In this document: piece by piece, positions 24,378-41,590 of the stretch
Layout: the number at the start of each line of letters is the position of its first letter
Position numbering within the stretch: position 1 is the first letter of the stretch
IMG/VR virus record: IMGVR_UViG_3300050119_000072
Span: 1 to 64,000 of that record
DNA: 64,000 bases
DNA from: a virus
Direction: 5' to 3' (one strand)
Position numbers and translations under genes: made by a program
Notes under the pieces: model-generated
What the model was told of the DNA's origin: nothing
Databases searched by the model: none
Seen by the model: the letters and a program-made list of their open reading frames with translations, nothing else

Positions 24378-26186
24378 ATGGCAACGAGGGAATTGCGCGG
24401 CAGTCGATATCTGACCGCGCGCAATGAGCCGCTCGCTAGGTTCATCCTCGACCAACTGCCGTTCCTGGACTTTCAGGAGACCCTGGAGTTCTACCGGCGC
24501 ATTGAGCCGACGCTCGACGACAGCGGACGGGCACTCCTAGGATGCAATGATCGCTACTACCTTTTCACTGGACTGCTCGGCCGCATCGACGGGCTGCATC
24601 CGTGGCTATTCGATCGCTGCCGAGAGGTCGAGGCCGATCCCGACGGCCACATCGATTTGTGGTCCCGGTTCCATTTTAAGTCTAGTTTGATTACTCTCGC
24701 CGGTGCCATTCAAGAGATCGTGGTCAATCCCGAGATCAAGATCGCCATCTTCTCGGTGGTCAAACCGATCGCCGCCGCCTTCCTTTCGCAAATCAAGGAA
24801 GAGTTCGAGAACAACGATCATCTCAAGGCCGTCTACCACGACGTTCTCTACGCCAATCCGCGCACGCTTGGCTCCGATGGGCGCCCGGCAAAGTGGGGTG
24901 TCGCGCGCGGTATCACGGTCAAGCGCAAATCGCGGCCGAAGGAGGCGACGGTCGAGGCGCACGGCCTGATCGACGGGCAGCCGACCTCCCGCCACTTTGA
25001 CCTGCAGATTTACGACGACGTTGTCACGCAGGACTATCTTTCAGAAGAGAGCATCCGCAAGACCACCGCGCGCTGGGAAATGGCCGATAACCTCGGCTCG
25101 CACCTTGGCGTGCGCAAATGGATGCCTGGCACGCGCTACCACTACGCCGACACTTACGGCATTATCATCGAGCGCAAGTCGCTCAAGCCACGCATCTATC
25201 CGGCGACGGACGACGGCACGCTCGAAGGCAAGCCGGTCTTTTTGACGCAAGCCCGCTGGGACGAGATCAAGCGGGACCAGCGATCGACCGTCTCCGCGCA
25301 GTGCCTGCTCAACCCAATCGCCGGCAACGAGGCGACGTTCCGCTCGACCTGGCTCAGGTTCTACGATGTCATCCCGGCGTTGATGAACGTCTACGTCCTT
25401 GTCGACCCCTCGAAGGGCTCCGGCGATAGGTCTGACCGAACGGCGATCGCAGTGATTGGCGTGGACGCTGGCTCGAACAAGTACCTGCTGGATGGCGTTC
25501 GCCACCGCATGAAGCTGTCAGAGCGATGGGAGTTCGTGAAGCAGCTCAAGCGCAAGTGGGAAAGCCACCCCGGCGTGCAGATGGTCAAGGTTGGCTATGA
25601 GCGCTACGGCATGCAGGTAGACCTCGAGGTGATCGAGGACAATATGCAGCGCGAGAACAACCACTTCGAGATCGAGGAAATGAACACGCCGCGGCAGGGC
25701 GGCCACTCCAAGGACGACCGCATCGGCCGGCTTGAGCCAGACCTAAAAGGAGGCCGCTTCTATATCCCCGGCATCGCGCACCACCCGGATTTCAACGACA
25801 AGGGCACCGGCGTCTGCATGGTTGGCGTCTGGACCGAGGAAATGGCCAAGATATCCAAGGAGCAAGGGCGCCCCTCGCCGAACAATGTCGGGCAGGTATT
25901 CTACCGGCCCATGCGCGGGCTGACCAAGCGCCAGCAGAATTGCGAGATCACGGCGCAGAAGCACCGCATCGTCACCGCCATCAAGCGCCGGGACGAGAAC
26001 AACGACGTCTACGACGTGACGCGCGCCTTCCTGGAAGAGCTGCTCCGTCACCCCTTTGCCCAGTACGTCGACTTTATCGACGCGGCGAGCCGCATTTACG
26101 ACCTTGATCCCCAACCGCCCGTCGCCTACGAAGCTCAGAGCACAGAGCCAATCGGCATGGAATCGGACCAGGTGGCGCAGCTATGA
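24378..26186 (+). CDS. terL: Terminase large subunit
   Basis: Walker A-like SRFHFKSS, Walker B QIYDDVV, GTRYH, nuclease VLVDPS, DRTAIAVIG, DFIDA. Confidence 0.92.
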   Translation: MATRELRGSRYLTARNEPLARFILDQLPFLDFQETLEFYRRIEPTLDDSGRALLGCNDRYYLFTGLLGRIDGLHPWLFDRCREVEADPDGHIDLWSRFHFKSSLITLAGAIQEIVVNPEIKIAIFSVVKPIAAAFLSQIKEEFENNDHLKAVYHDVLYANPRTLGSDGRPAKWGVARGITVKRKSRPKEATVEAHGLIDGQPTSRHFDLQIYDDVVTQDYLSEESIRKTTARWEMADNLGSHLGVRKWMPGTRYHYADTYGIIIERKSLKPRIYPATDDGTLEGKPVFLTQARWDEIKRDQRSTVSAQCLLNPIAGNEATFRSTWLRFYDVIPALMNVYVLVDPSKGSGDRSDRTAIAVIGVDAGSNKYLLDGVRHRMKLSERWEFVKQLKRKWESHPGVQMVKVGYERYGMQVDLEVIEDNMQRENNHFEIEEMNTPRQGGHSKDDRIGRLEPDLKGGRFYIPGIAHHPDFNDKGTGVCMVGVWTEEMAKISKEQGRPSPNNVGQVFYRPMRGLTKRQQNCEITAQKHRIVTAIKRRDENNDVYDVTRAFLEELLRHPFAQYVDFIDAASRIYDLDPQPPVAYEAQSTEPIGMESDQVAQL

Positions 26187-27476: not shown

Positions 27477-27504
27477 GAACCCGCCTTGGCGGGTTTCTTC
27501 TTTT
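27477..27504 (+). terminator. Rho-independent terminator-like hairpin
   Basis: aacccgcc-tt-ggcgggtt followed by tcttctttt. Confidence 0.55.
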
Positions 27505-27519
27505 GGAGAGAGAAACGCC

Positions 27520-28143
27520 ATGGCGCAACAGACAGTCAACAGCAATTCCGTGCAGCCCTTGGGCATCCCGAACACGGGCTCAAGCACAGAACAGGGCGAT
27601 ACCTGGGACGCGGCCGTCGTCAAAATCAATGCGATGTTCACCGACCTCTACACCGGCGCGAAGGCGATGATCGCCGGTCTGGGAACCGCAGTGTTCGGCG
27701 CGTCCGGCAATATCAGCACGCAGGTCGGCGTCATCGGTTCCTCGGCCACCAACACCACGCAGACGCTTTTGAGCTATGTGCTGCCGGCGAAGACGCTCAA
27801 TGCAGTCGGCAACGGCATCATGGTAACGGCCTTTGGCCAGAAGGCGGCGAACGCTGCCGGCTGCACGCTGGCTCTCACCGTCGGCGGCATGACGGTCAAT
27901 ACCGGCAACGTCACTTCGAGCGGCTCGAGCTGGATGATGGAGGCCATGTTCTTCAAGAGCGCCTCGAACGCCCAGGTCGGCAACCTCAACGCATTGACCG
28001 GTCTCACCCCGGTGAAGACGGTTTCCGGCACCGACACGTCCGTCGACACCGGCACGATCAACATCGCGGTGACCATGCTGGACGCCTCCGCCGGCCAGTC
28101 GAATATCCTGCTCGACGGACTCATCGTCGAGTTCTTCAACTAA
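27520..28143 (+). CDS. Putative virion surface protein (Ser/Thr-rich beta fold)
   Basis: GDTWDAAVVKINAMFTDLY capsid-anchor-like N-terminus; S/T/G-rich; GGAG SD. Confidence 0.7.
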   Translation: MAQQTVNSNSVQPLGIPNTGSSTEQGDTWDAAVVKINAMFTDLYTGAKAMIAGLGTAVFGASGNISTQVGVIGSSATNTTQTLLSYVLPAKTLNAVGNGIMVTAFGQKAANAAGCTLALTVGGMTVNTGNVTSSGSSWMMEAMFFKSASNAQVGNLNALTGLTPVKTVSGTDTSVDTGTINIAVTMLDASAGQSNILLDGLIVEFFN

Positions 28144-28192
28144 CCGCGCGGCGTTTACCTTCCCGCAAGGCAATTGCGGGTAAGGGGACGCC

Positions 28193-29584
28193 ATGTGGTT
28201 CATGCCTTCCTACGGCCGCCCGGACGCTCTCCGACGCATGTTGGAGGCGCCCGGCGGCTGGCCGGATCATGTGGTTGTCCTTGTCAACGAGGACGATCCG
28301 GCGCTGAAAGAGTACGGGCGCGTATTCACAAGCGCACTCCCGCGCGATCCTCCGTGGCGCCTGCACTTCATCCCCGCCGGCTCCCGCTGCTCCGACGCCC
28401 ACCGCTACATCACCACCAAATGGCCGGACGAAGCCTTCTACGGGCTGCTGTGCGACGATCAGTGGCCGGTGACGCCAGGCTGGCATGAGGCGCTGGTCAG
28501 GGCGGCCGGCTCCAAGTTCATCTCGACGCCGGCGGGCGAGCCGAATTTCCCGCTGCTGCGCAACGCCCTCGTCCTGGGCGGCGACCTGGTGCGCGCCATG
28601 GGCACGCTGGTCCCGGCGCCCGTGAAGCACAACTTCGAGGACAATATCTGGGACCGCATCGCGGCCGACTTCAATATCCTGGTGCCGCTGCCGGACGTTA
28701 TCGTCGAGCACCGCCATTGGGTGCACGGCACGGCAAAAAAAGACGCCACCTATGAGCGGGGTTCCGCCGACGCCATCGAGGACCGCAAAATCTTCGAGAC
28801 GTGGCTGGCGAGCGCCGATCGCATGGAAATGTGCCGCCGCATCGGCAAACTGCTTGATGTGTCGGGCATAACGACCATTGACCCCAAAAAGGTCCGGCTT
28901 GCCATCGTGGTGCCGATCGGGGACGAAGTGGTCGATATCGCCTATCACAAGTCGCTCAACGCCACGATTATGCTGCTGGCGCAATGCGGTATCAGCCTCT
29001 CGATCATGGAGGCCGCCGGTGGGAGCCACATCGGCAAGGCGCGAGAGCGCGTGCTCTGGCTGGCAATGCACGACTACAAGCCCACGCATCTGCTGTTTAT
29101 CGATGCCGACATGGGATGGGACGCCAAGCAGGTCACGCGGCTGCTGTGCGCCGACCATGAATTCGCGGCGATCGCCGGCGTGCGCAAGACCGACGAGGTG
29201 AAGGTCTGCTGCAACTTCCTGCCGACCGAAGAGCGCCACCCGGTCACAAACTTCCTCAAGGTCCGTGACGTGGGCTTCGCCTTCGTTCTGCTCAAGACCT
29301 CCGTGGTCGACAAGCTGTGCAAGGCCTATCCGGATCTCGAATACAATTGCGGGGACAAGCGCGAATGGGCGCTGTTCCTCGACATGATCGATAAAAAAGA
29401 CAAGACCAACGGCCTCCGCGGCGAGCGGCTGTCGGAGGACTTTTCCTTCTGCCGGCGCTGGCGCGCCATAGGCGGCGACATCTTCCTCGACGACGAGGCC
29501 GCGATTATCCACGCCGGCCGCAAGGAATACACCGGCAGAGCCGCCGACAAGTTGCCCTACGCAAAACCGGCCGCCACCGCTTAA
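28193..29584 (+). CDS. Two-domain GT-A fold glycosyltransferase
   Basis: Domain 1 MPSYGRP..LLCDD..EH.H; domain 2 LLFIDADMGW, VGFAFVLL, SEDFSFCRRW..IGG.I..D....HAG. Confidence 0.85.
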   Translation: MWFMPSYGRPDALRRMLEAPGGWPDHVVVLVNEDDPALKEYGRVFTSALPRDPPWRLHFIPAGSRCSDAHRYITTKWPDEAFYGLLCDDQWPVTPGWHEALVRAAGSKFISTPAGEPNFPLLRNALVLGGDLVRAMGTLVPAPVKHNFEDNIWDRIAADFNILVPLPDVIVEHRHWVHGTAKKDATYERGSADAIEDRKIFETWLASADRMEMCRRIGKLLDVSGITTIDPKKVRLAIVVPIGDEVVDIAYHKSLNATIMLLAQCGISLSIMEAAGGSHIGKARERVLWLAMHDYKPTHLLFIDADMGWDAKQVTRLLCADHEFAAIAGVRKTDEVKVCCNFLPTEERHPVTNFLKVRDVGFAFVLLKTSVVDKLCKAYPDLEYNCGDKREWALFLDMIDKKDKTNGLRGERLSEDFSFCRRWRAIGGDIFLDDEAAIIHAGRKEYTGRAADKLPYAKPAATA

Positions 29585-29596
29585 AGGCTTCCCATC

Positions 29597-29833
29597 ATGT
29601 CGCAGAGCGAAACCTCCGGCCCAAAGATAGGGCAGACGGTGATCTATTCGCCGTCGGCCGGCGTCACGTACCCCGCCATGCTGATCGCGGTCGCCGCAGG
29701 CACCGGGCTTGTGCGCCTCACCGTGTTTCAGCCAGGCGCGACCTTCCTCGACGCACAAAACGTCCCCTACGACTACACGCGCAACATCGTGTTCCCGTCC
29801 TGGAGCTATCCAGGGCCGCAAAGCGGAATTTGA
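29597..29833 (+). CDS. Small conserved phage protein
   Basis: PKIGQTV.Y...PA.......V.LTVF...WSYP. Confidence 0.7.
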   Translation: MSQSETSGPKIGQTVIYSPSAGVTYPAMLIAVAAGTGLVRLTVFQPGATFLDAQNVPYDYTRNIVFPSWSYPGPQSGI

Positions 29834-29836
29834 CGC

Positions 29837-30286
29837 ATGCCGCATGATCCCGTGATCGAGAGCCAAGAAGTCGTCTTTCGCACGGGCAAGGACACGCCCG
29901 ATCGCGTGGTGCTCAACCGGTACGAGGCGCCGGCTACGCCGGACAGCGGCATTGCCGAGGACCCCTATAAGGCGTCCGACCTTGCCGCATGCGCGCAGGC
30001 CATGCGCACGCTGGAAAAGCACTACCCCGGCCACTGCTTCCGCGTCATCCACGACAGCAAGCAAGGCATTTGCCTCATGTCGATCCCGATTCTCATGGGG
30101 ATCAACAACTACATGGCGGTCAATCTCAAGACGCACGCGCTCGACGATAGCCGCGTGATGAAGGCCGGCGGCGAGATACTTGAGCGCTACGGGCTCAAGC
30201 GCGGCGGCTTCGAGCTGACGCCGTTCCTCGACGCGCGGGCCAAACACTCGGCTCTCGTCGTCCCCAGCCGCAAGGTGCCTGGGTGA
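29837..30286 (+). CDS. Conserved hypothetical protein upstream of portal
   Basis: L.KHYPGH...GI...AGGEILERYGL.RG. Confidence 0.75.
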   Translation: MPHDPVIESQEVVFRTGKDTPDRVVLNRYEAPATPDSGIAEDPYKASDLAACAQAMRTLEKHYPGHCFRVIHDSKQGICLMSIPILMGINNYMAVNLKTHALDDSRVMKAGGEILERYGLKRGGFELTPFLDARAKHSALVVPSRKVPG

Positions 30287-30495
30287 AAACCCGGGCCCCG
30301 CGCCTCGCGACCAACCAGCAACTCTATCGCTCGCTGCTGGTCCTGCGCCAAGACGCGATCGCCCGCGGCTTTCTCGGTCCCGGCACGCGCGTCTATGGCA
30401 ACTCGCTGATCAGGCTCGGCACCGAACTGCTGGCGGCCGGAGTGACGTTCGATCAACTGCCGCGCCTAACCGCAAAGGGACCGCATGAAACCTAA
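30283..30495 (+). CDS. Hypothetical protein
   Basis: GTGA overlap. Confidence 0.5.
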   Translation: MKTRAPRLATNQQLYRSLLVLRQDAIARGFLGPGTRVYGNSLIRLGTELLAAGVTFDQLPRLTAKGPHET

Positions 30496-30814
30496 GATGA
30501 TCGCCGGAGCGAATGCCAACCCGGGCGCGCCGCGCGGCTGGGACCCGAAGAAAGACGGCCACTGTGGCACGCTTCCGATCCGCTACACGGAAGACGCAGA
30601 CGGCCGCATTGCACAATGCGAGAGCGCATGGGAGCCGAGCGCGGAAGAACTCGCCCTGTTGAACGCCGGCGGCTCCGTCATCCTTCGCGTAATCGGTTGG
30701 CAGGTTCCGGTCGCGCTGTATGTCGAGCCTGCGGACAAGGCGTTTCAAAACAGCAGAAGAAGCCCACGCGGCATATTGTGCCGCTGCTTCAAAATACTTC
30801 GGCAAATTCGCTAG
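30485..30814 (+). CDS. Hypothetical protein
   Basis: GAP.GWD...G.C..LP....SAWEP..EEL..LNAGG.V.L....PV.L.V. Confidence 0.7.
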   Translation: MKPKMIAGANANPGAPRGWDPKKDGHCGTLPIRYTEDADGRIAQCESAWEPSAEELALLNAGGSVILRVIGWQVPVALYVEPADKAFQNSRRSPRGILCRCFKILRQIR

Positions 30815-30943
30815 AGCCGCCTAACCAATCACTGCACGGATTGAGAACCGCGCGATCGACGCGCAGCAATCCTGTATGCGGGAGTGCTCCCCATTCTTCG
30901 ATCAAAACCAAGTGGCGAGGACGGCACCAATGGTGTCCGGGCG

Positions 30944-33439
30944 ATGCCAATTACGATAAACCAGAATGCCGTCCCACCGGGCGAGGACGGCTTGACCAAT
31001 GGCGCCGGCTACGAGAACGACGCGGCCGCGCAGGCTGAGCATCCGGACGGCAACGACACCACCACCTCGCGGCCCAGTATCGACTTCCTTCAATTGGTCC
31101 GCGAGGCCGAGGATCAGTCGTCGCTCTATCAGGCGCAGGTCAACCGCACAGCATGGTCGCAATCCCTGCGCGCCTTCCACAACGAGCATTACGTCGGCTC
31201 AAAATACACCAAGCCGGAATGGCGCGGCAGATCCCGCCTGTTTGTGCCAAAGACGCGCGCCGCAGTGCGCAAGGATGGCGCCGCGGTCGCGGCCTCGATG
31301 TTCAACAACATCGACGCCATCAACTGCCTGGCCGGCAATGACGGCGATCCCGTACAGCGCGCATCGGCCGCGCTCATGGAGGAACTGGTCAACTACCGGA
31401 CCAACCGGTCGTCGGGCAAAGCGGCGCTGCCGTGGTTCCTGGTCTCGATGGGCTGCCGGCAGGATTCGGTGCTCACCGGCGTTTGCCTATCAAAGCAAAG
31501 CTGGAAGCAGACATGGCGCAAGACCGGCGCCACCCGCGCGCACGAACTCAATCCCGCGACGAACGTCTATGAGGAACGCGAGCGCGCTCACTATTCGCTC
31601 GATATCGACCGGCCCGACATGCAGGGCATCCCGGCGGAGAACTATTGCATCGATCCGGCCGCGGACTGGACCAATCCGGCGCAAACAGCGGCCTATCTTC
31701 TCATCAAATGGCCGATGCAGATTGACGAAATTCGCGAGAAGCAGGACGCGCCGGTCAATCCATGGAACGAAGTCGACGAGTCGGTGCTGAAAAGCTCGGT
31801 CGAGAACACCAAGTTTGACGCCTCTGCAATCCGCCGCGCGCGAGAAATGGGCCTCGATCGATACGACGAAACCCAGACCGGCATGACCTTCCAAATCGTG
31901 TGGGTCTATGAAGTCTTTATGCGGGTCGAGGGCGAGGATTATACCTTCTACTCGGTCGGCGATAAGGACTTTCTGACCAACCCCAAGCCCGTCAGCGAGG
32001 TTTACCCGGAGCAATTCGGCGAGCGACCGCTTGCCTTGGGCTACGGCGCGCTCGAAGCGCACCGCATTTACCCCATGGCGCCGGTCGAGTCGTGGCAGCC
32101 ATTGCAAATCGAGACCAACGATATCCGCAATCTGGCCTTGGACGCGACCAAGCAGAACGTAATGCCGATCTCGAAGGTGAGACGCGGTCGCCAGATCGAC
32201 CTCGACCAGGTGCGCAGGCGCTCGGCGGGGGCCTCGATCATCGTCACGGACCCCACCGACGTCACATGGGAGACGCCGCCGCAGCTAGGGCAGGCCCCGG
32301 TGGAAATGGGGCGCGAGCTTGGCCTCGAGTTTGACGACCTCTCCGGCCAGCAGAACTACGGCACGGTCGAAAACAACAACGCCCTTGGCAAGACCTTGGG
32401 CGGCTTGAAGCTTGCGGCTGGTTCCGCCAACGCTGTGCAGGAATACGATATCCGGGTCTGGATCGAGACATGGGCGCAGCCAGCGCTGTCTCAAGTCGTG
32501 CGCCTCGAACAATACTACGAGAGCAGCGCCAAGGTGCTCGGCTTGTGCGGGCAGAAGGCAAAGCTCCTGCAAAAGTATGGCGTCAGCGCCATCACCAACG
32601 AACTGCTGGAAAACGAGATCACCGTCCGCGTTTCGGTCGGGCTTGGCGCCGGCGATCCCCAGCAGCGCCTAGCCAAGTTTCAATCGGCGACGCAAGTCGT
32701 CGCCCCATTGCTGGCGCAGACCAAGGAATTCCAGTCAGGCCAAGTCGAACTCAATTGGGAAGCTGTGGCAGAGGAAGTGTTTGGCGCGGCCGGCTATCAC
32801 GACGGCGGCTCGCGCTTCTTCAAGGACAACGGCGCGCCGGCGCAGAACCCCACCGCCGCCCTCAATATCCAGAAGCTGCAATCGGAAATCGAGAAAAACG
32901 ACCGGATGGGCAAGGGGTCATTGCTCACGGGCCTTGCCAACGTCGCGAAGGTCGCGCTGGGCAAGAAAGACTTGGAAGCGAGCACCGTCGATATGCTCAT
33001 GGGGCACCAGGAGACGGCGCGGCAGATGGGTCAGGCGCACGGTCACCAGACTAACCAGACGCGGCTTGCCGCCATGGAACACGGCCACCGTCACGGCATG
33101 GCCATCAACGAACATCGCCGCAGCTTGACCAACGACGCGCATTCGCGCGCCCAGGCCGAGCGCGAATTTCAGCAGAATCAGTCTGACGCTGCTGGTGGGG
33201 GTGCGGGGATGGATGGTGCCGAGGCGGGAAGCGGGCCTTCCGGCCCCGCTCCGGCCGCACCGTCTAGCGCGGGTGCTCCGGCCTCGCCCTCTGCATCCCC
33301 ACCTCCCGACCATGCAATGCTCGCCCAACTACTTGCGGCCGGGCACCTGCAATTCACGCGCGGCCCTGACGGTCGCATATCCGGCATAGCGATGCCGCCG
33401 CAGCGCGCGCTCCCGCCGCCGCAACCAGCACAGCAATAG
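30944..33439 (+). CDS. Portal protein (N4/P22-like podoviral)
   Basis: About 830 aa; RSRLFVPKTR, ENYCIDPAADW, LQ.E.N..RN...D, TLGG..L; long disordered tail. Confidence 0.85.
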   Translation: MPITINQNAVPPGEDGLTNGAGYENDAAAQAEHPDGNDTTTSRPSIDFLQLVREAEDQSSLYQAQVNRTAWSQSLRAFHNEHYVGSKYTKPEWRGRSRLFVPKTRAAVRKDGAAVAASMFNNIDAINCLAGNDGDPVQRASAALMEELVNYRTNRSSGKAALPWFLVSMGCRQDSVLTGVCLSKQSWKQTWRKTGATRAHELNPATNVYEERERAHYSLDIDRPDMQGIPAENYCIDPAADWTNPAQTAAYLLIKWPMQIDEIREKQDAPVNPWNEVDESVLKSSVENTKFDASAIRRAREMGLDRYDETQTGMTFQIVWVYEVFMRVEGEDYTFYSVGDKDFLTNPKPVSEVYPEQFGERPLALGYGALEAHRIYPMAPVESWQPLQIETNDIRNLALDATKQNVMPISKVRRGRQIDLDQVRRRSAGASIIVTDPTDVTWETPPQLGQAPVEMGRELGLEFDDLSGQQNYGTVENNNALGKTLGGLKLAAGSANAVQEYDIRVWIETWAQPALSQVVRLEQYYESSAKVLGLCGQKAKLLQKYGVSAITNELLENEITVRVSVGLGAGDPQQRLAKFQSATQVVAPLLAQTKEFQSGQVELNWEAVAEEVFGAAGYHDGGSRFFKDNGAPAQNPTAALNIQKLQSEIEKNDRMGKGSLLTGLANVAKVALGKKDLEASTVDMLMGHQETARQMGQAHGHQTNQTRLAAMEHGHRHGMAINEHRRSLTNDAHSRAQAEREFQQNQSDAAGGGAGMDGAEAGSGPSGPAPAAPSSAGAPASPSASPPPDHAMLAQLLAAGHLQFTRGPDGRISGIAMPPQRALPPPQPAQQ

Positions 33440-33447
33440 AGGACGAC

Positions 33448-33879
33448 ATGGCAGATTTTGGCGTCGGCAATAACACATTGGCCCCGACGATTGGGCAGCC
33501 ACAAACGGTCGTCGATAGCGGCGCGATTATCACGCTCACCAATGCCGGCGCTGGAACGACCAATAGCGCTGACCAGGAAAACAATGGCGGCCGTGGTCTT
33601 GCCGTCGTGCTCGATATCACCGCCAATTCCGGGACTATCGACGTCACGCTCAACATTCAGGTCAAGGACAAGGCGTCCGGCAAATATATCACGTTACTGT
33701 CGTCCGTCTCAAAAACGGCCACCGGGACATACCGGTACGTGGTCTATCCGACCATTACCGCGTCAGCCAATTTGATTGCGCAAGACGTTCTGCCGGAAAT
33801 CTGGCGCCTGCAAGTCGTATGCGGCGCCGGCTCATCCCCGCAGGTCACCTTGACCGCCGGCGCGTGCGTCATCCCCTAA
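33448..33879 (+). CDS. Putative virion surface protein (jelly-roll-like)
   Basis: NSADQ.N..GRG..V.LDIT...KD.ASGKY..LL....VYP...LP..WR; S/T-rich; GAGG SD. Confidence 0.7.
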   Translation: MADFGVGNNTLAPTIGQPQTVVDSGAIITLTNAGAGTTNSADQENNGGRGLAVVLDITANSGTIDVTLNIQVKDKASGKYITLLSSVSKTATGTYRYVVYPTITASANLIAQDVLPEIWRLQVVCGAGSSPQVTLTAGACVIP

Positions 33880-33894
33880 CGCTGGAAACGCTGA

Positions 33895-35424
33895 ATGCGA
33901 GAGGAAACCCGCGACCTCACCATCGGCGAAGCGCTCGACCTCGGCTGCCAGATGGCGCTGGCAGGCCGCAATCTCGATGCCATCGGGCTCTTCAAAGGCG
34001 TCCTCATCCATGAGCCGGAGAACTTTGAGGCGATGGAGCGGCTCGGCTCATCCCTCTTCGAGCTCAAGCGCTACCACGAAGCGCTGTATTATTTCTGGCG
34101 CGGCCGCAAGCTATGCCGCCGCCATCCGCTCGCCCTGACCAATTACGGGCTCACCGTCTCCCAGCTTGGGCACTGGGAGGAAGGGTTGGCCGAGCTTCAA
34201 AAAGCCGTTGCCATCATCGAGCGCGGCAAGCATGAGGTCGCGCCGGCGGTCAAGTCCTTGGTCTACAACAACCTGGGCAACGCCTTGCAGCGGGTCGAGA
34301 AATTCGCGGAAGCGCTCGCCTACCTCGACAAAGGCATTGCGCTCAACCCGCAGGATCACTTCCCGCACTACAATCGCGGCGTCGCGCTCCTGCGACTCAA
34401 CCGGCACAAGGAAGCGGTCGCGTCTCTAGATCGTTGCCTGACGCTCAAGCCAAACGACCAGGAGGCGCTTTACAATCGGTCCATGGGGCGCCTGCTGCTC
34501 GGCGACATGCAAGGCGGCTTTGCCGACTACGATGCTCGGCTGCTGACCTCTGAGAACACCGTCGTCAACCTTGGTCTGCCGGCGGACAAGAAGTGGGACG
34601 GTGGCGACCTCGCCGGCAAGACCATCCTTGTGCACTGCGAGCAAGGGCTTGGCGACGATATCCAGTTTCTGCGGTTCCTGCCGGCGCTGCGCGAGAAGAA
34701 CCCCGCGCGAATCCTGCTGGTGCCGCACTCAGCCATCACGCCAATGATCGCTCCGATGGAGGGCATGACCATCCGGCCCTCTGGCGTCCCAATCGACTTC
34801 GGAGAATTCGATTGCTGGGTAGCGCTGATGTCGCTCCCGCACTACCTCGGGCTGGATCAGGAGACATTGCTGCCGGCTTCGTGGCAGCCCGTTATCGAAC
34901 CCTCGCGGATCGCCGCATGGCGCATGAAGCTGGACCTTGACGCGAAGCGCCTCAAGGTCGGGGTGTGCTGGGCCGGCAACTGGCTCCATAAAAACGACAA
35001 GCATCGCTCAATCCCCTTGGCCAAGTTTGCGCCATTGTTCGACGCGATGGGTGTCACCTTCGTCAGCCTGCAACAGTTGCGCCCTGGCGAGAACAAGGAA
35101 TTTGATACGCTGGTCGCGAACAACACGGACCTGCGCTCGTTCTACTTCGACGACTTTCGCGACACTGCGGCAGCCATGCTCAATCTCGACATGGTGATAT
35201 CGGTAGATACGTCAGTGGCTCATCTTGCGGCGACGCTCGGCATCCCGACCAAAGTGCTGGTTCCTGCCTTCGGAACCGATTGGCGATGGGGACTGGGGCG
35301 CTCTGACTCGCCATGGTATCGGTCGGCCACCATTTATCGACAGCCGAAAGTCGGAGATTGGGTCTCCGTCATCGACAAGCTTCGCGCCGAATTGACGCGC
35401 CAAGCCATGATCTGGCCCGCATGA
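33895..35424 (+). CDS. TPR-repeat glycosyltransferase (GT-B, GT9/heptosyltransferase-like)
   Basis: TPRs (YNNLGNAL, YNRGVAL), WDG.DL.GKTILV..EQGLGDDIQF.RF, VGVCWAG, DTAA...LD.VISVDTSVAHLA..LG, DWRW...SPWY. Confidence 0.92.
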   Translation: MREETRDLTIGEALDLGCQMALAGRNLDAIGLFKGVLIHEPENFEAMERLGSSLFELKRYHEALYYFWRGRKLCRRHPLALTNYGLTVSQLGHWEEGLAELQKAVAIIERGKHEVAPAVKSLVYNNLGNALQRVEKFAEALAYLDKGIALNPQDHFPHYNRGVALLRLNRHKEAVASLDRCLTLKPNDQEALYNRSMGRLLLGDMQGGFADYDARLLTSENTVVNLGLPADKKWDGGDLAGKTILVHCEQGLGDDIQFLRFLPALREKNPARILLVPHSAITPMIAPMEGMTIRPSGVPIDFGEFDCWVALMSLPHYLGLDQETLLPASWQPVIEPSRIAAWRMKLDLDAKRLKVGVCWAGNWLHKNDKHRSIPLAKFAPLFDAMGVTFVSLQQLRPGENKEFDTLVANNTDLRSFYFDDFRDTAAAMLNLDMVISVDTSVAHLAATLGIPTKVLVPAFGTDWRWGLGRSDSPWYRSATIYRQPKVGDWVSVIDKLRAELTRQAMIWPA

Positions 35425-36209
35425 TGGCAAAGCTCGATCTGCGGACGGTTACCCTCGTCGCCGTAGAAACAAGGGCGCATGAATTGATGCGCATGGCGAT
35501 CGACGATTGCCTGGCGCTGGCCGACTTCGGCGGCATCCTGATCTGCTCGGATAACTTCAAGCACCTCAATGTGCTCGGCGCGGACCTTGTGCAGGTCAAG
35601 GATTGGCCGGAGAAGGTCGGCTGGTCGCGCTATTTCTGGCAGGGCGTCGGGCAACACGTGCACACGCCGTACACGCTCAATATCCAATGGGATAGCTGGA
35701 TCTGGTGTCCGGCGATGTGGTTCCCGGAATACCTCGATTACGACTACATCGGCGCGCCCTGGTGGCACGAAGATGGGCTCAACGTCGGCAACGGCGGGTT
35801 CTGCATCCGGTCGAAGCGGTTGCTCGACTACATGGCGAGGCACAGCGAGACCTTCCCGATCACCACCAGCAATGACGACGCTCTGGTTTGCCGCACCTAT
35901 CGCAGGAAGCTAGAACAAGAGGGCTTCCGCTGGGCGCCGGAAGGCTTGGCCTTCCAGTTCTCGCTCGAATGTCCGCGCGACGTGCTCATCAACAACGAGC
36001 TAAAAACCTCGATCCCTCTGCCAGACCTGCCGCATTTCGGGTTTCACGGAATGCACGCATGGCCGTTTGTGCTCAATGAGAACGCGCTGGTAAAGCGCAC
36101 GCTGCTGGCGCTCTCGAACAAGTACATTCGCAATACCCGTATGCCGGGCCAACTCTTCAATATGGCCCCATGGCTCGCGCCGCTCGTCGGCGCTGAACTC
36201 GCCTCTTAA
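35421..36209 (+). CDS. DUF5672-family putative glycosyltransferase
   Basis: VTLVAV, IQWDSW, DYDYIGAPW, VGNGGFCIRSKRL, FGFHG. Confidence 0.88.
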   Translation: MMAKLDLRTVTLVAVETRAHELMRMAIDDCLALADFGGILICSDNFKHLNVLGADLVQVKDWPEKVGWSRYFWQGVGQHVHTPYTLNIQWDSWIWCPAMWFPEYLDYDYIGAPWWHEDGLNVGNGGFCIRSKRLLDYMARHSETFPITTSNDDALVCRTYRRKLEQEGFRWAPEGLAFQFSLECPRDVLINNELKTSIPLPDLPHFGFHGMHAWPFVLNENALVKRTLLALSNKYIRNTRMPGQLFNMAPWLAPLVGAELAS

Positions 36210-36324
36210 TCCGTCGTCGATAGAGCTTCGGGGAGATATCCCCCGTGAGAACGGCGCAGCGCGCCGCGTTACGCAGCATTGCGCTGCACCACCACACCCC
36301 AGACCAAACAAGAAGGAATATCGC

Positions 36325-36795
36325 ATGGCCTATTATGCGCTCTCGGGCACTCAAGCTACCGTCACATCAGCCTACAAAGGCGTTGCTGCTACTTGGTGCC
36401 CGGCCACCGTGCGCCGTGCCAAATGGTACGAATTCACGCTTGGCGCGACCGCCAATCCGAACGCGACCGACACCTATTTGCAGTTCGACATTTCACGCTT
36501 GTCCGGCACCACATCGCTCGCCGGCACCGCGCTCACGCCGAATCCGCTCGATCCGGCCGACCAGGCTGCGGCGACGCTCGCCGCCGGCAACCTGACCACG
36601 GAGGTCAATTCGGCCATCCTGGGTGTCTCGCTCTACAACACCGGCATCAACCAGCGCGCCACGACCCGCTGGATTGCGGCGCAGGAATCGCAATTCCTGA
36701 TCTCGCCGGCGACGGCTCAGAACGGCCTGGAACTGCGGGTTCAGTCCTCGACGTTTGCTTCGACCTGCGATGGCCAAGTGAGTTTTGTGGAATAG
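36325..36795 (+). CDS. Putative virion surface protein (Ser/Thr/Ala-rich)
   Basis: 156 aa; TP.PLDPAD, NQRAT.RW.A; AAGGA SD. Confidence 0.65.
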   Translation: MAYYALSGTQATVTSAYKGVAATWCPATVRRAKWYEFTLGATANPNATDTYLQFDISRLSGTTSLAGTALTPNPLDPADQAAATLAAGNLTTEVNSAILGVSLYNTGINQRATTRWIAAQESQFLISPATAQNGLELRVQSSTFASTCDGQVSFVE

Positions 36796-36850
36796 GCCGT
36801 AGCGATTCGGTAACCAAGTCTGGGTATCCCAATCAAAAGGAAGCCCAGAC

Positions 36851-37651
36851 ATGGCCCAGCGCGTCAAGACACCTTTTGTCCTCGCATCTACCGCGCATGG
36901 GCCGGTGATCTTAAACCACCTCGATTTTCGCCAGTTGGATAAGGGCGGCGTCGAGCTTGGCGTCGGTCTCGATATCCTCGTCCACGGCGAATTCGATCTG
37001 CCGCTAATCTCCATGACCTGCGGCGCGCTGGAAATACGCCGGCGCGAACGCGGGGCTGGCGTCGTCGCGCTCGATTGCGGCGCCAACATCGGGATTTACA
37101 CGCTCGAATGGGCGCGAAGAATGGAAGGCTGGGGCCGCGTCCTAGCCTTTGAGCCGCAAGAGCGAATCTATTACGCCCTTGCCGGCAATATCGCGCTCAA
37201 CAACCTGTTCAACGCCCAAGCGATCAATAGCGCTATCGGTGCCAAGCGTGACGTCATCGATATGCGTGTGCCGGATTACTGTGTGCCGGGCCAGTTTGGC
37301 GGCCTATCGCTGAATGGCCGACTTGAAATTGGGCAAGAAGTTACGACGTTGGCTCCGCTTCAAGTCATCCCGATCGATGATCTTGGGCTGCGTCGCGTTG
37401 ATTTCATCAAACTCGATATCGAGGGGATGGAGCCGGACGCGCTCGCCGGCGCCCGCAAGACCATCGAGACCAGCAAGCCATTTATGCTGGTAGAGTGGAT
37501 CAAATGCGGCAAAGAGCCGATTGAGGCGTTCATGGCCTCTGTAAGCTTTGAGACCGTCACGCTCGGCATGAATTTGCTGTGCGGGCCGGCCGGCAATGAA
37601 TTCACGGCGCGCATGCGGGAATTGTCCGAGCAGCGGGCAGTGCCGCAATGA
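36851..37651 (+). CDS. FkbM-family SAM-dependent methyltransferase
   Basis: LDCGANIG.YT, VLAFEPQ, IDDL....VDFIKLDIEGME...L.GA. Confidence 0.93.
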   Translation: MAQRVKTPFVLASTAHGPVILNHLDFRQLDKGGVELGVGLDILVHGEFDLPLISMTCGALEIRRRERGAGVVALDCGANIGIYTLEWARRMEGWGRVLAFEPQERIYYALAGNIALNNLFNAQAINSAIGAKRDVIDMRVPDYCVPGQFGGLSLNGRLEIGQEVTTLAPLQVIPIDDLGLRRVDFIKLDIEGMEPDALAGARKTIETSKPFMLVEWIKCGKEPIEAFMASVSFETVTLGMNLLCGPAGNEFTARMRELSEQRAVPQ

Positions 37652-39072
37652 GCGAGTTAGCCGAACGCCTCTTTGAGCAGGCTTTGACCGCCATCCGCGG
37701 GCGCGCCACCGATCACGCCAAGGCGCTTCTGGTCGAGGTGATTAAGCTCAAGCCGGAAATGTACGAGGCCTGGTTGCTTCGCGGCAATCTGCTTCACTCG
37801 ACCGAGCAGCCGTTCGAGGCGCTTTTACATTACGACCGCGCCATATCGATCAACGGCAAGCGCCACGATGCCTGGAACAATCGCGGGCTGGCGTTTGGCG
37901 ATATCGGCATGTTTGCCGCTGCCGAAGATTGCTTCCGCAAGTCGCTTGCGATTGCGCCGTCGGTCGAGCCCCACATGGGCTTGGCCAATATGTTCTGCAC
38001 GCTCATGCGGCTTGAGGACGCGGCTACCGAATATCGGGCCGCAATCTCCATCGAGCGAAACCCGGAAGCCAGTTTCAATCTGGGTGTCACGTTGCTTGGC
38101 CTTGGCCAATGGGACGAGGGCTTTGGCGAATACGAACAGCGCTGGCTCAATACGCCGATGCCGCCGCGGGCCTATCGGGATTATCCGAAATGGACTGGCG
38201 AGGATTTGACCGGCAAGCGCATTGTGCTTTACCCGGAGCAAGGGTACGGCGACGAGATCATGGCGCTGCGGTTTGCAGGTCTGCTTACACAGCGCTACCC
38301 CATCGCGGAAATCGTCGTTCAGGCGCGCGGGCCGATGCTGCGGCTGGTCAAAGGCAACAGTGCGTTTATCGAGTACGTGGTGCCGATGCACGCCGACGAA
38401 CAGCCGGCAGCCGATTTTTCGTGCCCGCTGCTCGATGTTCCGATGGTGCTGGGCCTCACGCCCAAAGACGCTCCATTCATGGGGCAGTGGACGAAATATC
38501 TGCGAGCGCCGGATCAGCGCATGGTGGACACCTGGCGCAAGCGGCTCAAAGCCAATTTGCCGCCGGGCCTCAATGTCGGGCTGTGCTGGTCGTCCGGTTC
38601 GCACATGAACACCGCCAAGGCTTCGGCCTTGATGAAATCCATTCCACTACCCCGGTTAAAAGGTCTCGCGTTGCCGGGTGTAAATCTAATCTCGCTGCAA
38701 AAGCCTGCCGAGACTATTCCTAACGGGTTTCCGATCACGGCAGATTGGATCGATGATTGCCACGACTTTGCGGATACTGCGGCGCTAATCGAAGCGCTCG
38801 ATCTGGTGATATCGGTCGATACCTCCGTCGCGCACCTGGCCGGGGCGCTGGGCAAGCCGGTCTGGAATTTCGTGCGCTTTAGCGGCTACTGGCCGTGGCT
38901 GGCGCCAAGCCTATTGCCAAATCCACATAATGCGATCTGGTATCCGTCAATGCGGCTTTTACGCCAACCGGGCCTGAGTAATTGGGTCGGACCGATCGAG
39001 ACCGCGACCGCTTGGCTCAGGTCGGAAGTCGAGGCGTGGAAGCAACGCCCAGAGAGCAAAGCCTCCGCATGA
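37648..39072 (+). CDS. Second TPR-repeat glycosyltransferase (GT9-like)
   Basis: TPRs (AWNNRGLA), WTGEDL.GK.I....EQGYGDEI, VGLCWSSG, DFADTAALIEALDLVISVDTSVAHLAGALGKP. Confidence 0.92.
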   Translation: MSELAERLFEQALTAIRGRATDHAKALLVEVIKLKPEMYEAWLLRGNLLHSTEQPFEALLHYDRAISINGKRHDAWNNRGLAFGDIGMFAAAEDCFRKSLAIAPSVEPHMGLANMFCTLMRLEDAATEYRAAISIERNPEASFNLGVTLLGLGQWDEGFGEYEQRWLNTPMPPRAYRDYPKWTGEDLTGKRIVLYPEQGYGDEIMALRFAGLLTQRYPIAEIVVQARGPMLRLVKGNSAFIEYVVPMHADEQPAADFSCPLLDVPMVLGLTPKDAPFMGQWTKYLRAPDQRMVDTWRKRLKANLPPGLNVGLCWSSGSHMNTAKASALMKSIPLPRLKGLALPGVNLISLQKPAETIPNGFPITADWIDDCHDFADTAALIEALDLVISVDTSVAHLAGALGKPVWNFVRFSGYWPWLAPSLLPNPHNAIWYPSMRLLRQPGLSNWVGPIETATAWLRSEVEAWKQRPESKASA

Positions 39073-39437
39073 AAACCATGGTCATCACCATTGCCGATCC
39101 GGCCGACGGCGATCTGGTCATCGTGAACGCGGAAGCGCCGCGCGGCGGCAAAACCAGTGTTAAACACCGCGTCATTGGCGCTCGCCAGCGGCCAGTGCTC
39201 GACGAGCATGGCTTTGCTACGTCCGTCGAGGACGTGCCGGCACAGACCGCGCGCGATATAGCCGTAATCATGGCCGAACTGCTCACCGGCGGCTGGTTGC
39301 CGGGGCAGATGGAAGCCAAGCCAAAAGGTGACAACGGCGCACTTGTCGTCCATTGCACACAGGATTTTAGCGACCTCAAATTCTCGACTGAGGTGCACGG
39401 CGACGGCGGGACGAAAGCAACCTTGGAAGAATTCTGA
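39069..39437 (+). CDS. Hypothetical protein
   Basis: ATGA overlap. Confidence 0.6.
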   Translation: MKTMVITIADPADGDLVIVNAEAPRGGKTSVKHRVIGARQRPVLDEHGFATSVEDVPAQTARDIAVIMAELLTGGWLPGQMEAKPKGDNGALVVHCTQDFSDLKFSTEVHGDGGTKATLEEF

Positions 39438-39736
39438 TGCTGCGCGAAGGCGGCTACATCGTCACGACCGATCCAGACCCTACCAAGAGCAAGGGGCAAA
39501 AGGCGGTCGTGGAAATGTCAACCGTTACCTGCGGCCACAACGGCGAACTGGTCGCGGTGCCGGCGATGTGCAAGCCGGAAAATATGCCATACGAGCTTTG
39601 CTGGGGCTGCCGGCGGTTTATCTGTCGCCGCTGCGCCGCCGAAATGCACCGCACACTTAAGTGCGAAGTTATAGAGACCAAGCTTGAGCGCGAGGAAGAG
39701 CGGGCGCGGTTTGGGCGTAGTCTGGTGGGAGGATGA
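39437..39736 (+). CDS. Zinc-finger protein
   Basis: TCGH...CWGC...IC..C......C. Confidence 0.7.
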   Translation: MLREGGYIVTTDPDPTKSKGQKAVVEMSTVTCGHNGELVAVPAMCKPENMPYELCWGCRRFICRRCAAEMHRTLKCEVIETKLEREEERARFGRSLVGG

Positions 39737-40032
39737 CCAAGATGAGCGCAGCAAGACGACAGCGTAAGGGCGTTCCTCAACCGGCTCCCGCAGGTCCGCA
39801 AGCGCCACCGGAACGCCGTGTCCCGGCGGTCAACTGCGCTGGCTGCAAGTTCGTCGATGCACTCAATGTGCAGCAACCATTCTGCCGCCGCTTTCCGGCC
39901 CAGCTTGTTGTCGTACCCCGCGTCAACGACGCCGACACCGGCGTGCGCAAGTTCTTTCCTATCGTCGATCTGATCTACGATTGGTGCGGCGAGCACGTGC
40001 CACAATCAACGCCGGATAAAACCGTCGGCTAG
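39733..40032 (+). CDS. Small Cys-rich protein
   Basis: CAGCKF...CRRFP...FP.V....WCGEH. Confidence 0.75.
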   Translation: MTKMSAARRQRKGVPQPAPAGPQAPPERRVPAVNCAGCKFVDALNVQQPFCRRFPAQLVVVPRVNDADTGVRKFFPIVDLIYDWCGEHVPQSTPDKTVG

Positions 40033-40058: not shown

Positions 40059-40087
40059 AAGGCGCCTTTACCGGCGCCTTTTTCTTT
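40059..40087 (+). terminator. Rho-independent terminator
   Basis: aaggcgcc-tttacc-ggcgcctt then tttcttt. Confidence 0.75.
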
Positions 40088-40102: not shown

Positions 40103-41590
40103 ATGACAGTCATCTATCTCACCGTCGGCACAAAATGGGTCGCGCCGCAAAATTGGAGCAACACCGGCGCGACGATTGAGTTGATTGGCGGAGGCGGTGG
40201 TGGCGTCTCAGTTGCCGGCGGCGTCGGTGGCGGCGGTGGCGGCGGCCAATATGTAGTCACGACGACGCCAAATATCGTAGCCGGCACAACCTACTCTTAC
40301 GTGATCGGCCAAGGCGGCGCGGCCAACGCCAACGGCACAAATACAACCTTCACCGATGGCGGCGGGACTTACACCGCACACGCCGGTCAGACCGGATCAA
40401 CCATCACTGGCGGGGCAGGTGGCACCGGCGCAGGCGGTGGGACTGGCTCGAACGTCGGTGGCGCTGGCGGCAACGCATCGACGGATGCAGGCGGCGGCGG
40501 CGGCGCTGGTGGCGCGACCGGCGCAGGCACGGCGGGCGCAGCCGGCACAATCGGCGGCGATGGTGCTGGTGGTTCGGGCGACGCTGGCGCAGGCGGCGCT
40601 GGCGGTACGGCGGCAGGCGGCGTTGGCGGCGCAGGCTCCGAATGGACCGCGACAGGATTAAACGGCGGCGCGGCAGGCTCCGGCGGCGGCGGCGGCGGCA
40701 AGCAAGCTGGGACCGGCGGCGCCGGCGGATTGTATGGGGCGGGCGGCGGCGGCGGCGCGACGGGTGGTGCGGGCAAAAACGGCATCATCGTCATCACCTA
40801 TACGCCGACATCGCAGCCAACGATTTACATTTTCAAAGACCTCACGGTCACGAATTTTTCGACGCCATCCGATTGCATAGTCGCAAATTATCTTGTCGTC
40901 GCTGGCGGCGGCGGGGCCGGCTATTCGCAGGCCGGCGGCGGCGGCGGCGGCCAAGTATTGACCGGCGGCCAAACTCCGGTCGCCGGCGCGAATTACGCAC
41001 TATCAATTGGCGCCGGCGGCACGGCTGGTACAGGCGCCGGCGTCGCAACGAATGGTTCCAACTCTGTCTTTACTGGGGTTTCCACTGTCACGGCGACGGG
41101 CGGCTTAAAATCTGGCGATAACGGCGCTAACAACGGCGCTAATTCAGGCTCGGGAAATGCCGGCGGCACCGGCGGCGGCGGTGGTGGCGGCGGCGGTGGT
41201 GGCGGTGGCAACGGCGGAGTCGGCTCAAATAATTCCGGTAATAACGGCGGCAATGGCGGCATCGGTACATCGAGCACCATATCGGGAGCCTCGGTTGGTT
41301 ACGGCGGCGGTGGTGGCGGCGGCGGCCATGCGGGAGGGAGCGGCGGCACTGCGACCTCTGGCGGTGGCAATGCTGGTCAAACGCCGGATTCGCCAGGGCT
41401 CAACGGCACTGCAAATACTGGCGGCGGTGGTGGCGGCGGCAGCAATAGCGCGGCAGCCCAAGCCGGCGGTGGCGGCGGTTCGGGCATCATCATTATCAGT
41501 TACTCGACCACGCCATCGCATGTGCCATACGATCAAAGCGCAGACGCCCTCATTCGTGAAATGAACCGCTCGCAGATGGTGGCATACTAA
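40103..41590 (+). CDS. Glycine-rich fibre-like protein with two tandem Gly-rich domains
   Basis: IELIGGGGGG...GKNGIIVITY and YLVVAGGGG...GSGIIIISY; GTANTGGGGGG. Confidence 0.85.
   Translation: MTVIYLTVGTKWVAPQNWSNTGATIELIGGGGGGVSVAGGVGGGGGGGQYVVTTTPNIVAGTTYSYVIGQGGAANANGTNTTFTDGGGTYTAHAGQTGSTITGGAGGTGAGGGTGSNVGGAGGNASTDAGGGGGAGGATGAGTAGAAGTIGGDGAGGSGDAGAGGAGGTAAGGVGGAGSEWTATGLNGGAAGSGGGGGGKQAGTGGAGGLYGAGGGGGATGGAGKNGIIVITYTPTSQPTIYIFKDLTVTNFSTPSDCIVANYLVVAGGGGAGYSQAGGGGGGQVLTGGQTPVAGANYALSIGAGGTAGTGAGVATNGSNSVFTGVSTVTATGGLKSGDNGANNGANSGSGNAGGTGGGGGGGGGGGGGNGGVGSNNSGNNGGNGGIGTSSTISGASVGYGGGGGGGGHAGGSGGTATSGGGNAGQTPDSPGLNGTANTGGGGGGGSNSAAAQAGGGGGSGIIIISYSTTPSHVPYDQSADALIREMNRSQMVAY

Follow-up and report, generated by a model that had tools for sequence, protein, structure and literature searches.

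The phage genome studied here is the complete 86,655-bp IMG/VR record IMGVR_UViG_3300050119_000072, which has direct terminal repeats; its first 64 kb (64,000 nucleotides, the whole stretch of DNA that was analysed) are referred to as the window. Among the head genes in the window lies a block of genes for putative modifying enzymes, which include two proteins combining tetratricopeptide repeats (TPR) with a glycosyltransferase (GT) domain resembling family GT9. An earlier sequence-only reading of the window had listed five enzyme genes and three genes for small Ser/Thr-rich proteins around the portal gene, and all eight were found there, the portal being of the SU10 type. All named genes of the block are on the + strand and carry a strong coding signal in the G+C content of third codon positions (GC3). 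They are as follows (aa, amino acids).

23717-24361, + strand: small terminase
24378-26186, + strand: large terminase (TerL), followed by several small genes
27520-28143, + strand: small protein 1 (sp1), 207 aa, Ser/Thr-rich, low in charge
28193-29584, + strand: two-domain GT-A-like protein (GT-A fusion), 463 aa, followed by four small genes
30884-33439, + strand: portal protein, SU10 type (PF23899, E 1.1e-20)
33448-33879, + strand: small protein 2 (sp2), 143 aa, Ser/Thr-rich
33895-35424, + strand: TPR-GT 1, TPR repeats and a GT9-like GT-B domain
35421-36209 (longer frame from 35313), + strand: DUF5672 protein (PF18922)
36325-36795, + strand: small protein 3 (sp3), 156 aa, predicted jelly-roll, Ser/Thr-rich
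36851-37651, + strand: FkbM-family S-adenosylmethionine-dependent methyltransferase (PF05050, TIGR01444)
37648-39072, + strand: TPR-GT 2, paralog of TPR-GT 1
39437-39736, + strand: gene g39437 for a 99-aa protein, homologs of which accompany sp3 in other phages

The enzyme genes lie on one strand between the terminase and capsid genes, with gaps of -11 to 115 nucleotides (nt). Two 4-nt ATGA overlaps occur in the block, one between TPR-GT 1 and the DUF5672 gene and one between the FkbM gene and TPR-GT 2; the likely DUF5672 start at 35421, deduced from the translation, overlaps the stop codon of TPR-GT 1. Strong Shine-Dalgarno sites precede the genes for sp1 to sp3, and the enzyme genes have weak sites or mostly none. 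Downstream of TPR-GT 2 are two genes for 99-aa proteins, a gene for a glycine-rich protein and three more head-region genes, and then the capsid gene, interrupted by inserts bearing homing endonucleases, a gene for an SU10-type adaptor, and the tail genes.

TPR-GT 1 and TPR-GT 2 share 32% identity (E 2e-36) and are paralogs. The portal and the TPR repeats scored above the curated cut-offs of their Pfam families. TPR_1 of Pfam was matched by TPR-GT 1 (E 6.8e-20), and PF01075 (GT9) was matched by TPR-GT 2 over about 32 residues (25.6 bits against a cut-off of 22), TPR-GT 1 remaining below the cut-off at 16.5 bits. The heptosyltransferase I model of NCBIfam scored 25.3 bits, far under its cut-off of 185, Glyco_transf_41 (GT41) of Pfam was matched by neither protein at E <= 0.01, and a PDB sequence search with TPR-GT 1 returned TPR matches only. 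An AlphaFold2 model of TPR-GT 1 was obtained from an alignment of 35 sequences with a mean predicted local distance difference test score (pLDDT) of 92.9 and a predicted template modelling score (pTM) of 0.87; twelve helices make up six TPRs (about residues 10-217), and a Rossmann-like domain of two lobes comes after them (about 236-509). With the whole chain, Foldseek ranked SPINDLY (SPY) first (E 1.6e-13), followed by human and Xanthomonas OGTs; E values of these matches ran from 1.6e-13 to 1e-9, with low template modelling (TM) scores of 0.3-0.42. The GT domain alone was compared with 48,161 PDB representatives using VIA-align, and its nearest structure was the GT9 protein 3tov (Z 17.4, 254 aa, 3.5 A), followed by WaaF (1psw, Z 16.2, 257 aa), TibC (4rap, Z 16.0) and WaaC (2h1f, Z 14.8), the GT9-fold matches spanning 239-257 residues. 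Invariant in all 35 aligned TPR-GT sequences were E249, Q250, G251, G253 and D254, and further D438, T439 and H443. These residues form EQGxGD and DTxVAH motifs that line up with those of WaaF and 3tov in unchanged order, in a profile comparison that is not significant alone (E about 0.8), and they correspond to the G-x-G-D and D-(S/T)-x-x-x-H-(L/V)-A motifs that we take to be hallmarks of GT9. In the predicted structure, the likeness to OGT and SPINDLY (GT41) is thus one of architecture, and the catalytic domain alone is nearer to GT9. The label "TPR-GT9-like" given in the sequence-only reading is borne out by the model, by the Foldseek and GT9 structural matches and by the invariant motifs, and so is the statement that a TPR domain joined to a GT-B domain is the architecture of protein-directed glycosyltransferases, as it is shared with FlmG, OGT and SPINDLY.

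The GT-A fusion generated no Pfam match of its own. Residues 3-197 matched the glycosyltransferase profile phrog_14945 and residues 232-446 the uncharacterised phrog_1574, and its family comprised 4,529 representatives at E <= 0.001, including each half as a free-standing protein. In an alignment of 45 members, D88/D89 and D304-x-D306 were invariant, and Pfam found Glycos_transf_2 in 13 and Anp1 in 11 of these 45 relatives. Comparison of the family profile with PDB yielded weak matches, all of them GT-A enzymes: COLGALT1, a procollagen galactosyltransferase (E 0.006), 9jma (E 0.01), the archaeal-virus enzyme A197 of STIV (E 0.016) and GlfT2 (E 0.03). The neighbours by protein language model in ESM Atlas were viral GT2 clusters (0.97). 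PDB sequence searches with the GT-A fusion and with the DUF5672 protein gave no match for either. Given the PHROG match, the alignment motifs, the Pfam matches of relatives, the PDB profile matches and the embedding neighbours, the identification of the 463-aa protein as a fusion of two GT-A domains is well supported at the level of sequence comparison.

The FkbM protein exceeded the cut-offs of PF05050 (59.8 bits against 22.7) and TIGR01444 (81.3 against 37.7) and matched phrog_8156 (E 2.3e-25); by these profiles its family assignment is unambiguous, and its activity may be the O-methylation of a sugar. The DUF5672 protein matched PF18922 (56.1 bits against a cut-off of 24.4). Its placement among GT-A enzymes was tried and rejected, as hhalign against the GT-A alignment gave a probability of 0.2; no structural or profile link of this protein to glycosyltransferases was found, and no close relative of it was found among viral contigs. 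Among the five modifying enzymes proposed earlier, the TPR-GT pair, the GT-A fusion and the FkbM protein thus hold, whereas for the DUF5672 protein the family match holds and the role as an enzyme was an assumption.

Pfam scans covered 100 open reading frames (ORFs) genome-wide (23 + 22 + 55 proteins). In this set no gene for nucleotide-sugar synthesis or base hypermodification was detected, DNA methyltransferases alone being found, in agreement with the absence of such genes reported from the sequence-only reading. The same scans detected no thymidylate-synthase-like gene, no flippase, polymerase or initiating-transferase family of polysaccharide pathways, and no integrase.

TPR-GT relatives are encoded by 397 viral contig stretches. 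Among the best 80 viral loci, 60 belong to a single uncultured lineage, whose phrog_138 capsid gene has a TPR-GT9 gene nearby; in an annotated example (L229), a 397-aa TPR-GT9 protein (PF01075, 25.1 bits) is encoded directly beside the capsid gene, and protease and portal genes adjoin the pair in this lineage. Elsewhere, a TPR-GT9 gene lies between capsid and neck genes (L192) or beside tail-fibre genes (L191). In Podoviridae sp. ctDrO704 (MW202512.1), the gene for the major capsid protein (MCP) is followed by genes for two small proteins, a TPR protein 27% identical to TPR-GT 1 (E 2e-28), an endonuclease, an FkbM protein and a galT-like transferase. By these annotations, at least three phage lineages that are unrelated to one another have a TPR-GT9 gene adjoining capsid genes, in one case accompanied by FkbM and a further transferase. 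Of all the arguments that the target lies in the virion, this repeated independent placement, in one case together with the same kinds of partner enzymes, is the strongest. No close cultured phage was found in INPHARED for the studied genome, the portal of which matches 32 records, each at less than 60% identity, and TPR-GT 1 matches 10 INPHARED records. The lineage of L229 and 59 other loci (among L183-L262) likewise had no close cultured relative in INPHARED; it consists of IMG/VR contigs with a GC content of 0.40-0.49 and TPR-GT9 proteins of about 380-420 aa, and on the other side of the L229 pair lie conserved genes, one with a weak sialyltransferase-like PHROG match.

With the folds, motifs, gene order and recurrence in other phages established as above, we place about even confidence in the reading that the cassette carries out protein O-glycosylation of one or more virion proteins. 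In this scheme, the cassette would be expressed with the head genes and would decorate the virion protein or proteins with a short, partly methylated glycan. The acceptor protein would be bound by the TPR superhelix of the two TPR-GT9 paralogs and would receive its first sugar, on Ser or Thr, from their GT9-like GT-B domain, as FlmG does on flagellin and TibC on autotransporters; the GT-A fusion would add further sugars and the FkbM protein would O-methylate one of them. For the donor sugar and the order of enzyme action the scheme relies on what we infer. The TPR superhelix of OGT and SPINDLY is an acceptor-protein-binding device, and TibC, an autotransporter heptosyltransferase, shows that a GT9-like fold can O-glycosylate proteins. 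A virion protein would be the acceptor, with sp1, sp3, the capsid protein and the product of 47563-48315 as candidates, and we count in favour of the scheme that the candidate acceptors are among the most Ser/Thr-rich proteins of the genome.

As the GT domain of TPR-GT 1 is nearest to WaaF and WaaC, which are lipopolysaccharide (LPS) heptosyltransferases, and to the GT9 protein 3tov, the enzymes might instead be morons that remodel an envelope glycan of the host (LPS core, O-antigen, capsule or exopolysaccharide) during infection, which could block superinfection or the re-adsorption of progeny to debris, the site among the head genes then being a mere insertion hot spot. Polysaccharide pathways often include GT2-like and FkbM enzymes, a relative in Rhizobium phage RHph_X2_30 was annotated by its depositor as a polysaccharide biosynthesis protein, and the gene content at these sites shifts between relatives, as it does with morons. 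However, a large N-terminal TPR domain, which binds the acceptor in FlmG, OGT and SPINDLY, is kept in both phage and bacterial homologs, and the Pfam scans lacked the flippase, polymerase and initiating-transferase families. Moreover, the enzyme genes are part of a tightly packed late block, and a random moron site would not predict capsid-adjacent TPR-GT genes in unrelated lineages. We consider envelope remodelling unlikely.

Three related genomes, G001 (81 kb, 100% complete), G002 (102 kb, 96%) and G003 (97 kb, 100%), were compared with the studied genome (G000), to the portal of which theirs are 55-62% identical. The sequence-only reading had proposed that each enzyme block directly follows its own small Ser/Thr-rich gene. 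This pairing held for sp1, which lies directly before the GT-A fusion in all four genomes. It did not hold for sp2 and TPR-GT 1, since TPR-GT 1 directly follows the portal in G001-G003 and both sp2 and DUF5672 are absent from all three; a 61% identical sp2 homolog lies between TerL and portal in another contig (L179), with no glycosyltransferase adjoining. For sp3 the pairing was loose: the order of sp3 followed by FkbM or TPR-GT 2 is kept in G001, G002 and contig L004, where TPR-GT 2 orthologs adjoin sp3, while G003 lacks sp3, and its second TPR-GT is preceded by a gene resembling Methyltransf_24 (23.6 bits, below cut-off). In both L006 and L007, a g39437 homolog lies directly 3' of the sp3 homolog and the enzymes are absent, the TerL, portal and MCP of L007 being unrelated to those of the studied phage. 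g39437 thus marks the ancestral neighbour of sp3, from which it is separated by the insertion of FkbM and TPR-GT 2.

Kept across G001-G003 are sp1 with the GT-A fusion, the portal with TPR-GT 1, and the second TPR-GT with a methyltransferase. The accessory enzymes vary: Methyltransf_24 is found in G003, DUF5672 in the studied phage, and an NAD-dependent epimerase/dehydratase in G001, where it lies between the GT-A fusion and the portal (L002:6167-7270) and matches Epimerase (E 4.5e-41) and GDP_Man_Dehyd (E 7.7e-18, GDP-mannose-4,6-dehydratase-like). A nucleotide-sugar tailoring enzyme is therefore encoded by some members of the clade themselves, and such variation in accessory enzymes is typical of glycan diversification. 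Both DUF5672 and sp2 were added recently. As the pairs are mostly not conserved across relatives, the enzymes form a conserved but plastic cassette among structural genes, and adjacency to an enzyme block does not identify the acceptors.

The confinement of DUF5672 and sp2 to the studied genome among these relatives would also suit unrelated insertions that do not cooperate, with DUF5672 or FkbM acting on small molecules, nucleic acid or non-structural proteins. Pointing the same way, the N-terminal half of the GT-A fusion weakly matches phrog_2675 (E 4.1e-10), which is annotated as a DNA methyltransferase, and one of the 45 GT-A fusion relatives matches a TET-associated glycosyltransferase (E 0.008). 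We regard this explanation as quite improbable, given that a TPR-GT, FkbM and a second glycosyltransferase recur together in the unrelated MW202512.1, that 4-nt overlaps join FkbM to TPR-GT 2 and TPR-GT 1 to DUF5672, and that the Pfam scans showed no thymidylate-synthase-like or base-hypermodification genes.

Among the 97 called ORFs, sp3 ranked first in Ser plus Thr fraction (0.224), sp1 third (0.222) and sp2 fifth (0.196), against a median of 0.10. The sp1 start at 27520 agrees with database protein P0068 and follows the ribosome-binding site GGAGAGAG, itself 3' of a terminator-like hairpin at 27477-27496. The sp1 protein, which has 66 homologs, comprises an N-terminal segment and a predicted concanavalin-like beta-sandwich (about residues 60-207); its nearest ESM Atlas clusters were all viral, its structural matches were GH16/CBM-like sandwiches at a TM-score of about 0.5, and it is a candidate virion surface protein. 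For sp2, few relatives were found and the Pfam match to Pilin was weak and below cut-off. The 64 homologs of sp3 are 47-85% identical to it, and its AlphaFold2 model (pLDDT 77.3) is an all-beta jelly-roll. A specific fold match was sought for sp3 and rejected, the PDB matches to Ena pilin (Z 7.8), STNV coat (Z 7.5) and KHP40 cement protein (Z 7.2) being in the noise range; in BFVD many phage proteins share the fold (TM-score up to 0.75), all of them uncharacterised. On the model, nothing more specific than a generic jelly-roll can be claimed for sp3, which is a candidate capsid-associated protein. No sp3 match was detected by its hidden Markov model (HMM) in 80 loci encoding distant GT-A fusion relatives. 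A shared acceptor family of the small proteins was also considered and rejected, sp2 and sp3 being without similarity (E 1.9). Residues 109-124 of sp3 are its most conserved stretch, with N109, Q110, R111, T113, R115, W116 and E121 invariant, and are the sole part of the model with pLDDT below 50; they may be an interaction or assembly segment. The composition, ribosome-binding sites and position of sp1 to sp3 are consistent with abundant virion proteins.

The GT domain of the TPR-GTs has more than 6,151 database relatives. Homologs of about 40% identity occur in Bradyrhizobium, Acetobacteraceae, Xanthobacteraceae, cyanobacteria, Planctomycetota and Burkholderiales. The best bacterial homologs, together with an sp3 homolog located on a contig binned as Xanthobacteraceae, hint weakly at alphaproteobacterial hosts, for example Bradyrhizobium or Xanthobacteraceae. 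GT9-like matches were found in 120 of 301 sampled genomes of one class (a tally that includes the unpublished genome G247), and three genomes carry 3-5 GT9-like copies each, alphaproteobacteria often having several. A Bradyrhizobium neotropicale record (G005:C124:87993-91814, locus L028) contains a 1,508-aa frame with three tandem GT9-like domains, and in other sampled genomes several GT9-like copies likewise share open frames of 1,300-2,000 aa.

Flagellar genes lay within 6 kb of the homolog in 6 of 75 bacterial loci, which is well above chance (roughly estimated at about 1%), yet a minority. In 3 of the 9 loci scanned with Pfam, the flagellar neighbours were confirmed: the homolog adjoins a flagellin gene, with FliD also near, in L082; it adjoins a flagellin-like gene, with FlgK also near, in L013; and it lies among hook and basal-body genes (FliF, FliG) in L036. 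These flagellum-linked bacterial relatives probably glycosylate a filament protein. Such loci, above all L082 and L013, together with the FlmG paradigm, raise the question of whether the phage TPR-GTs could glycosylate a host filament (flagellin or pilin) and thereby change the receptor of competing flagellotropic or pilus-specific phages. We find this very unlikely, because late expression with the head genes and the lack of an integrase in the Pfam scans would leave little time for filament remodelling, four genomes retain two diverged paralogs, the GT-A fusion and a methyltransferase within the virion module, and other lineages, too, have TPR-GT genes associated with capsid genes.

Several observations weigh against O-glycosylation of virion proteins as the function of the cassette. 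Classical GT9 enzymes act on lipopolysaccharide, and the TPR-GT9 family is very large and present in multiple copies in bacteria, with 69 of the 75 bacterial homolog loci having no flagellar gene within 6 kb. The L229 lineage has its TPR-GT and capsid genes on opposite strands. Co-occurrence of enzymes with their upstream genes across the related genomes failed for sp2 and was loose for sp3, and the sp1 HMM found a match in just 1 of the 80 loci encoding distant GT-A fusion relatives, that of the related genome G002.

Several features of the window and genome were noted around the block. GC-rich hairpins followed by T-runs, intergenic and on the + strand, are located at 27477-27496 (before sp1) and 40059-40080 (after 39733-40032) and bracket the whole block; the terminator total was not above shuffled controls, the promoter and terminator scan giving 5 against 4.2 and 21 against 18.5. 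The Rfam scan of 26000-50000 produced no match. After TPR-GT 2, a 364-nt gap (39073-39436) is the sole long gap in the block and contains neither a called gene nor an Rfam match. A 495-aa protein encoded at 40103-41590 contains 48.5% Gly plus Ala and 4% charged residues and matches Gly_rich_2 (E 9.3e-21); no homolog of it was found at the equivalent place in G001-G003. The capsid gene is apparently split, its C-terminal part alone being found (46867-47547, phrog_1357), and upstream of this part lie a LAGLIDADG gene (44746-45567, - strand) and an HNH gene (45886-46602, - strand), with dips in GC content. From 60289 to the end of the window at 64000, and on to 75717 of the genome, runs a single ORF of 5,142 aa with coding signal throughout; its first 1,237 residues match InPase (E 2e-30), ddrB-like ParB (E 1.4e-31), and DarB-like antirestriction and minor-head PHROGs, and its product is probably a giant injected or virion protein.

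Among known systems, the phage TPR-GTs resemble in architecture, rather than in compared sequence, the FlmG proteins of Caulobacter crescentus and Brevundimonas subvibrioides, which likewise join an N-terminal TPR domain to a C-terminal GT-B domain; in FlmG, flagellins are bound by the TPR domain and the donor is set by the GT-B domain (PMC7591256; 10.1101/2022.03.25.485807). Unlike in the FlmG systems, the phage encodes neither a flagellin nor a nonulosonic-acid pathway, and its enzymes lie among head genes, as two paralogs accompanied by the GT-A fusion and a methyltransferase. The GT9 proteins WaaC, WaaF and 3tov together with TibC are the best structural matches of the phage GT domain and share the G-x-G-D and D-(S/T)-x-x-x-H motifs, but their sequence similarity to the TPR-GTs is marginal and none of them has a TPR domain. 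The protein O-GlcNAc transferase OGT and the protein O-fucose transferase SPINDLY resemble the phage TPR-GTs in that a TPR superhelix leads into a GT-B domain; the differences are the missing Pfam GT41 match of the TPR-GTs and the low TM-scores. MW202512.1 resembles the studied phage in having a capsid gene, small proteins, a TPR protein, FkbM and a second transferase in order; it differs in having one TPR-GT rather than two, in encoding capsid and small proteins unrelated to those of the studied phage, and in being an environmental, uncharacterised genome.

Virion glycosylation in mycobacteriophages was reportedly described by Freeman et al. in 2023. According to the available portions of two further papers, mycobacteriophages Che8, Corndog and Myrna glycosylate their own capsid and tail-tube subunits by phage-encoded glycosyltransferases, and this glycosylation shields the particles from antibodies (PMC12363180; PMC12619734). 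These phages differ from the studied one in their actinobacterial hosts; the available portions do not mention TPR-GT9, and their enzymes are compared with the phage TPR-GTs by description only. In the literature searched, mycobacteriophages were the only phages with experimentally shown virion glycosylation, and nothing was found that ties TPR heptosyltransferase-like enzymes to phage capsid or virion glycosylation.

In its broadest form, which we advance tentatively and with less than even confidence, TPR-GT9 would be a widespread class of phage virion-protein O-glycosyltransferases, akin to flagellin-glycosylating enzymes. In the studied phage, which would infect Gram-negative bacteria, capsid-surface proteins would receive a coat of methylated glycan made by two paralogs, a double GT-A protein and FkbM, and hundreds of uncultured phages would have the same class at work beside their capsid gene. 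If this is true, a second and unrelated enzyme set would lead to glycan-coated virions, which would then be common in nature, and the TPR plus GT-B logic of flagellin- and OGT-type glycosylation would be frequent in environmental phages of Gram-negative bacteria. It would bear on how phages adsorb, how stable their particles are, how host defences recognise them and how therapeutic phages are engineered, and would provide a function for part of the very large bacterial TPR-GT9 family, which is mostly without one.

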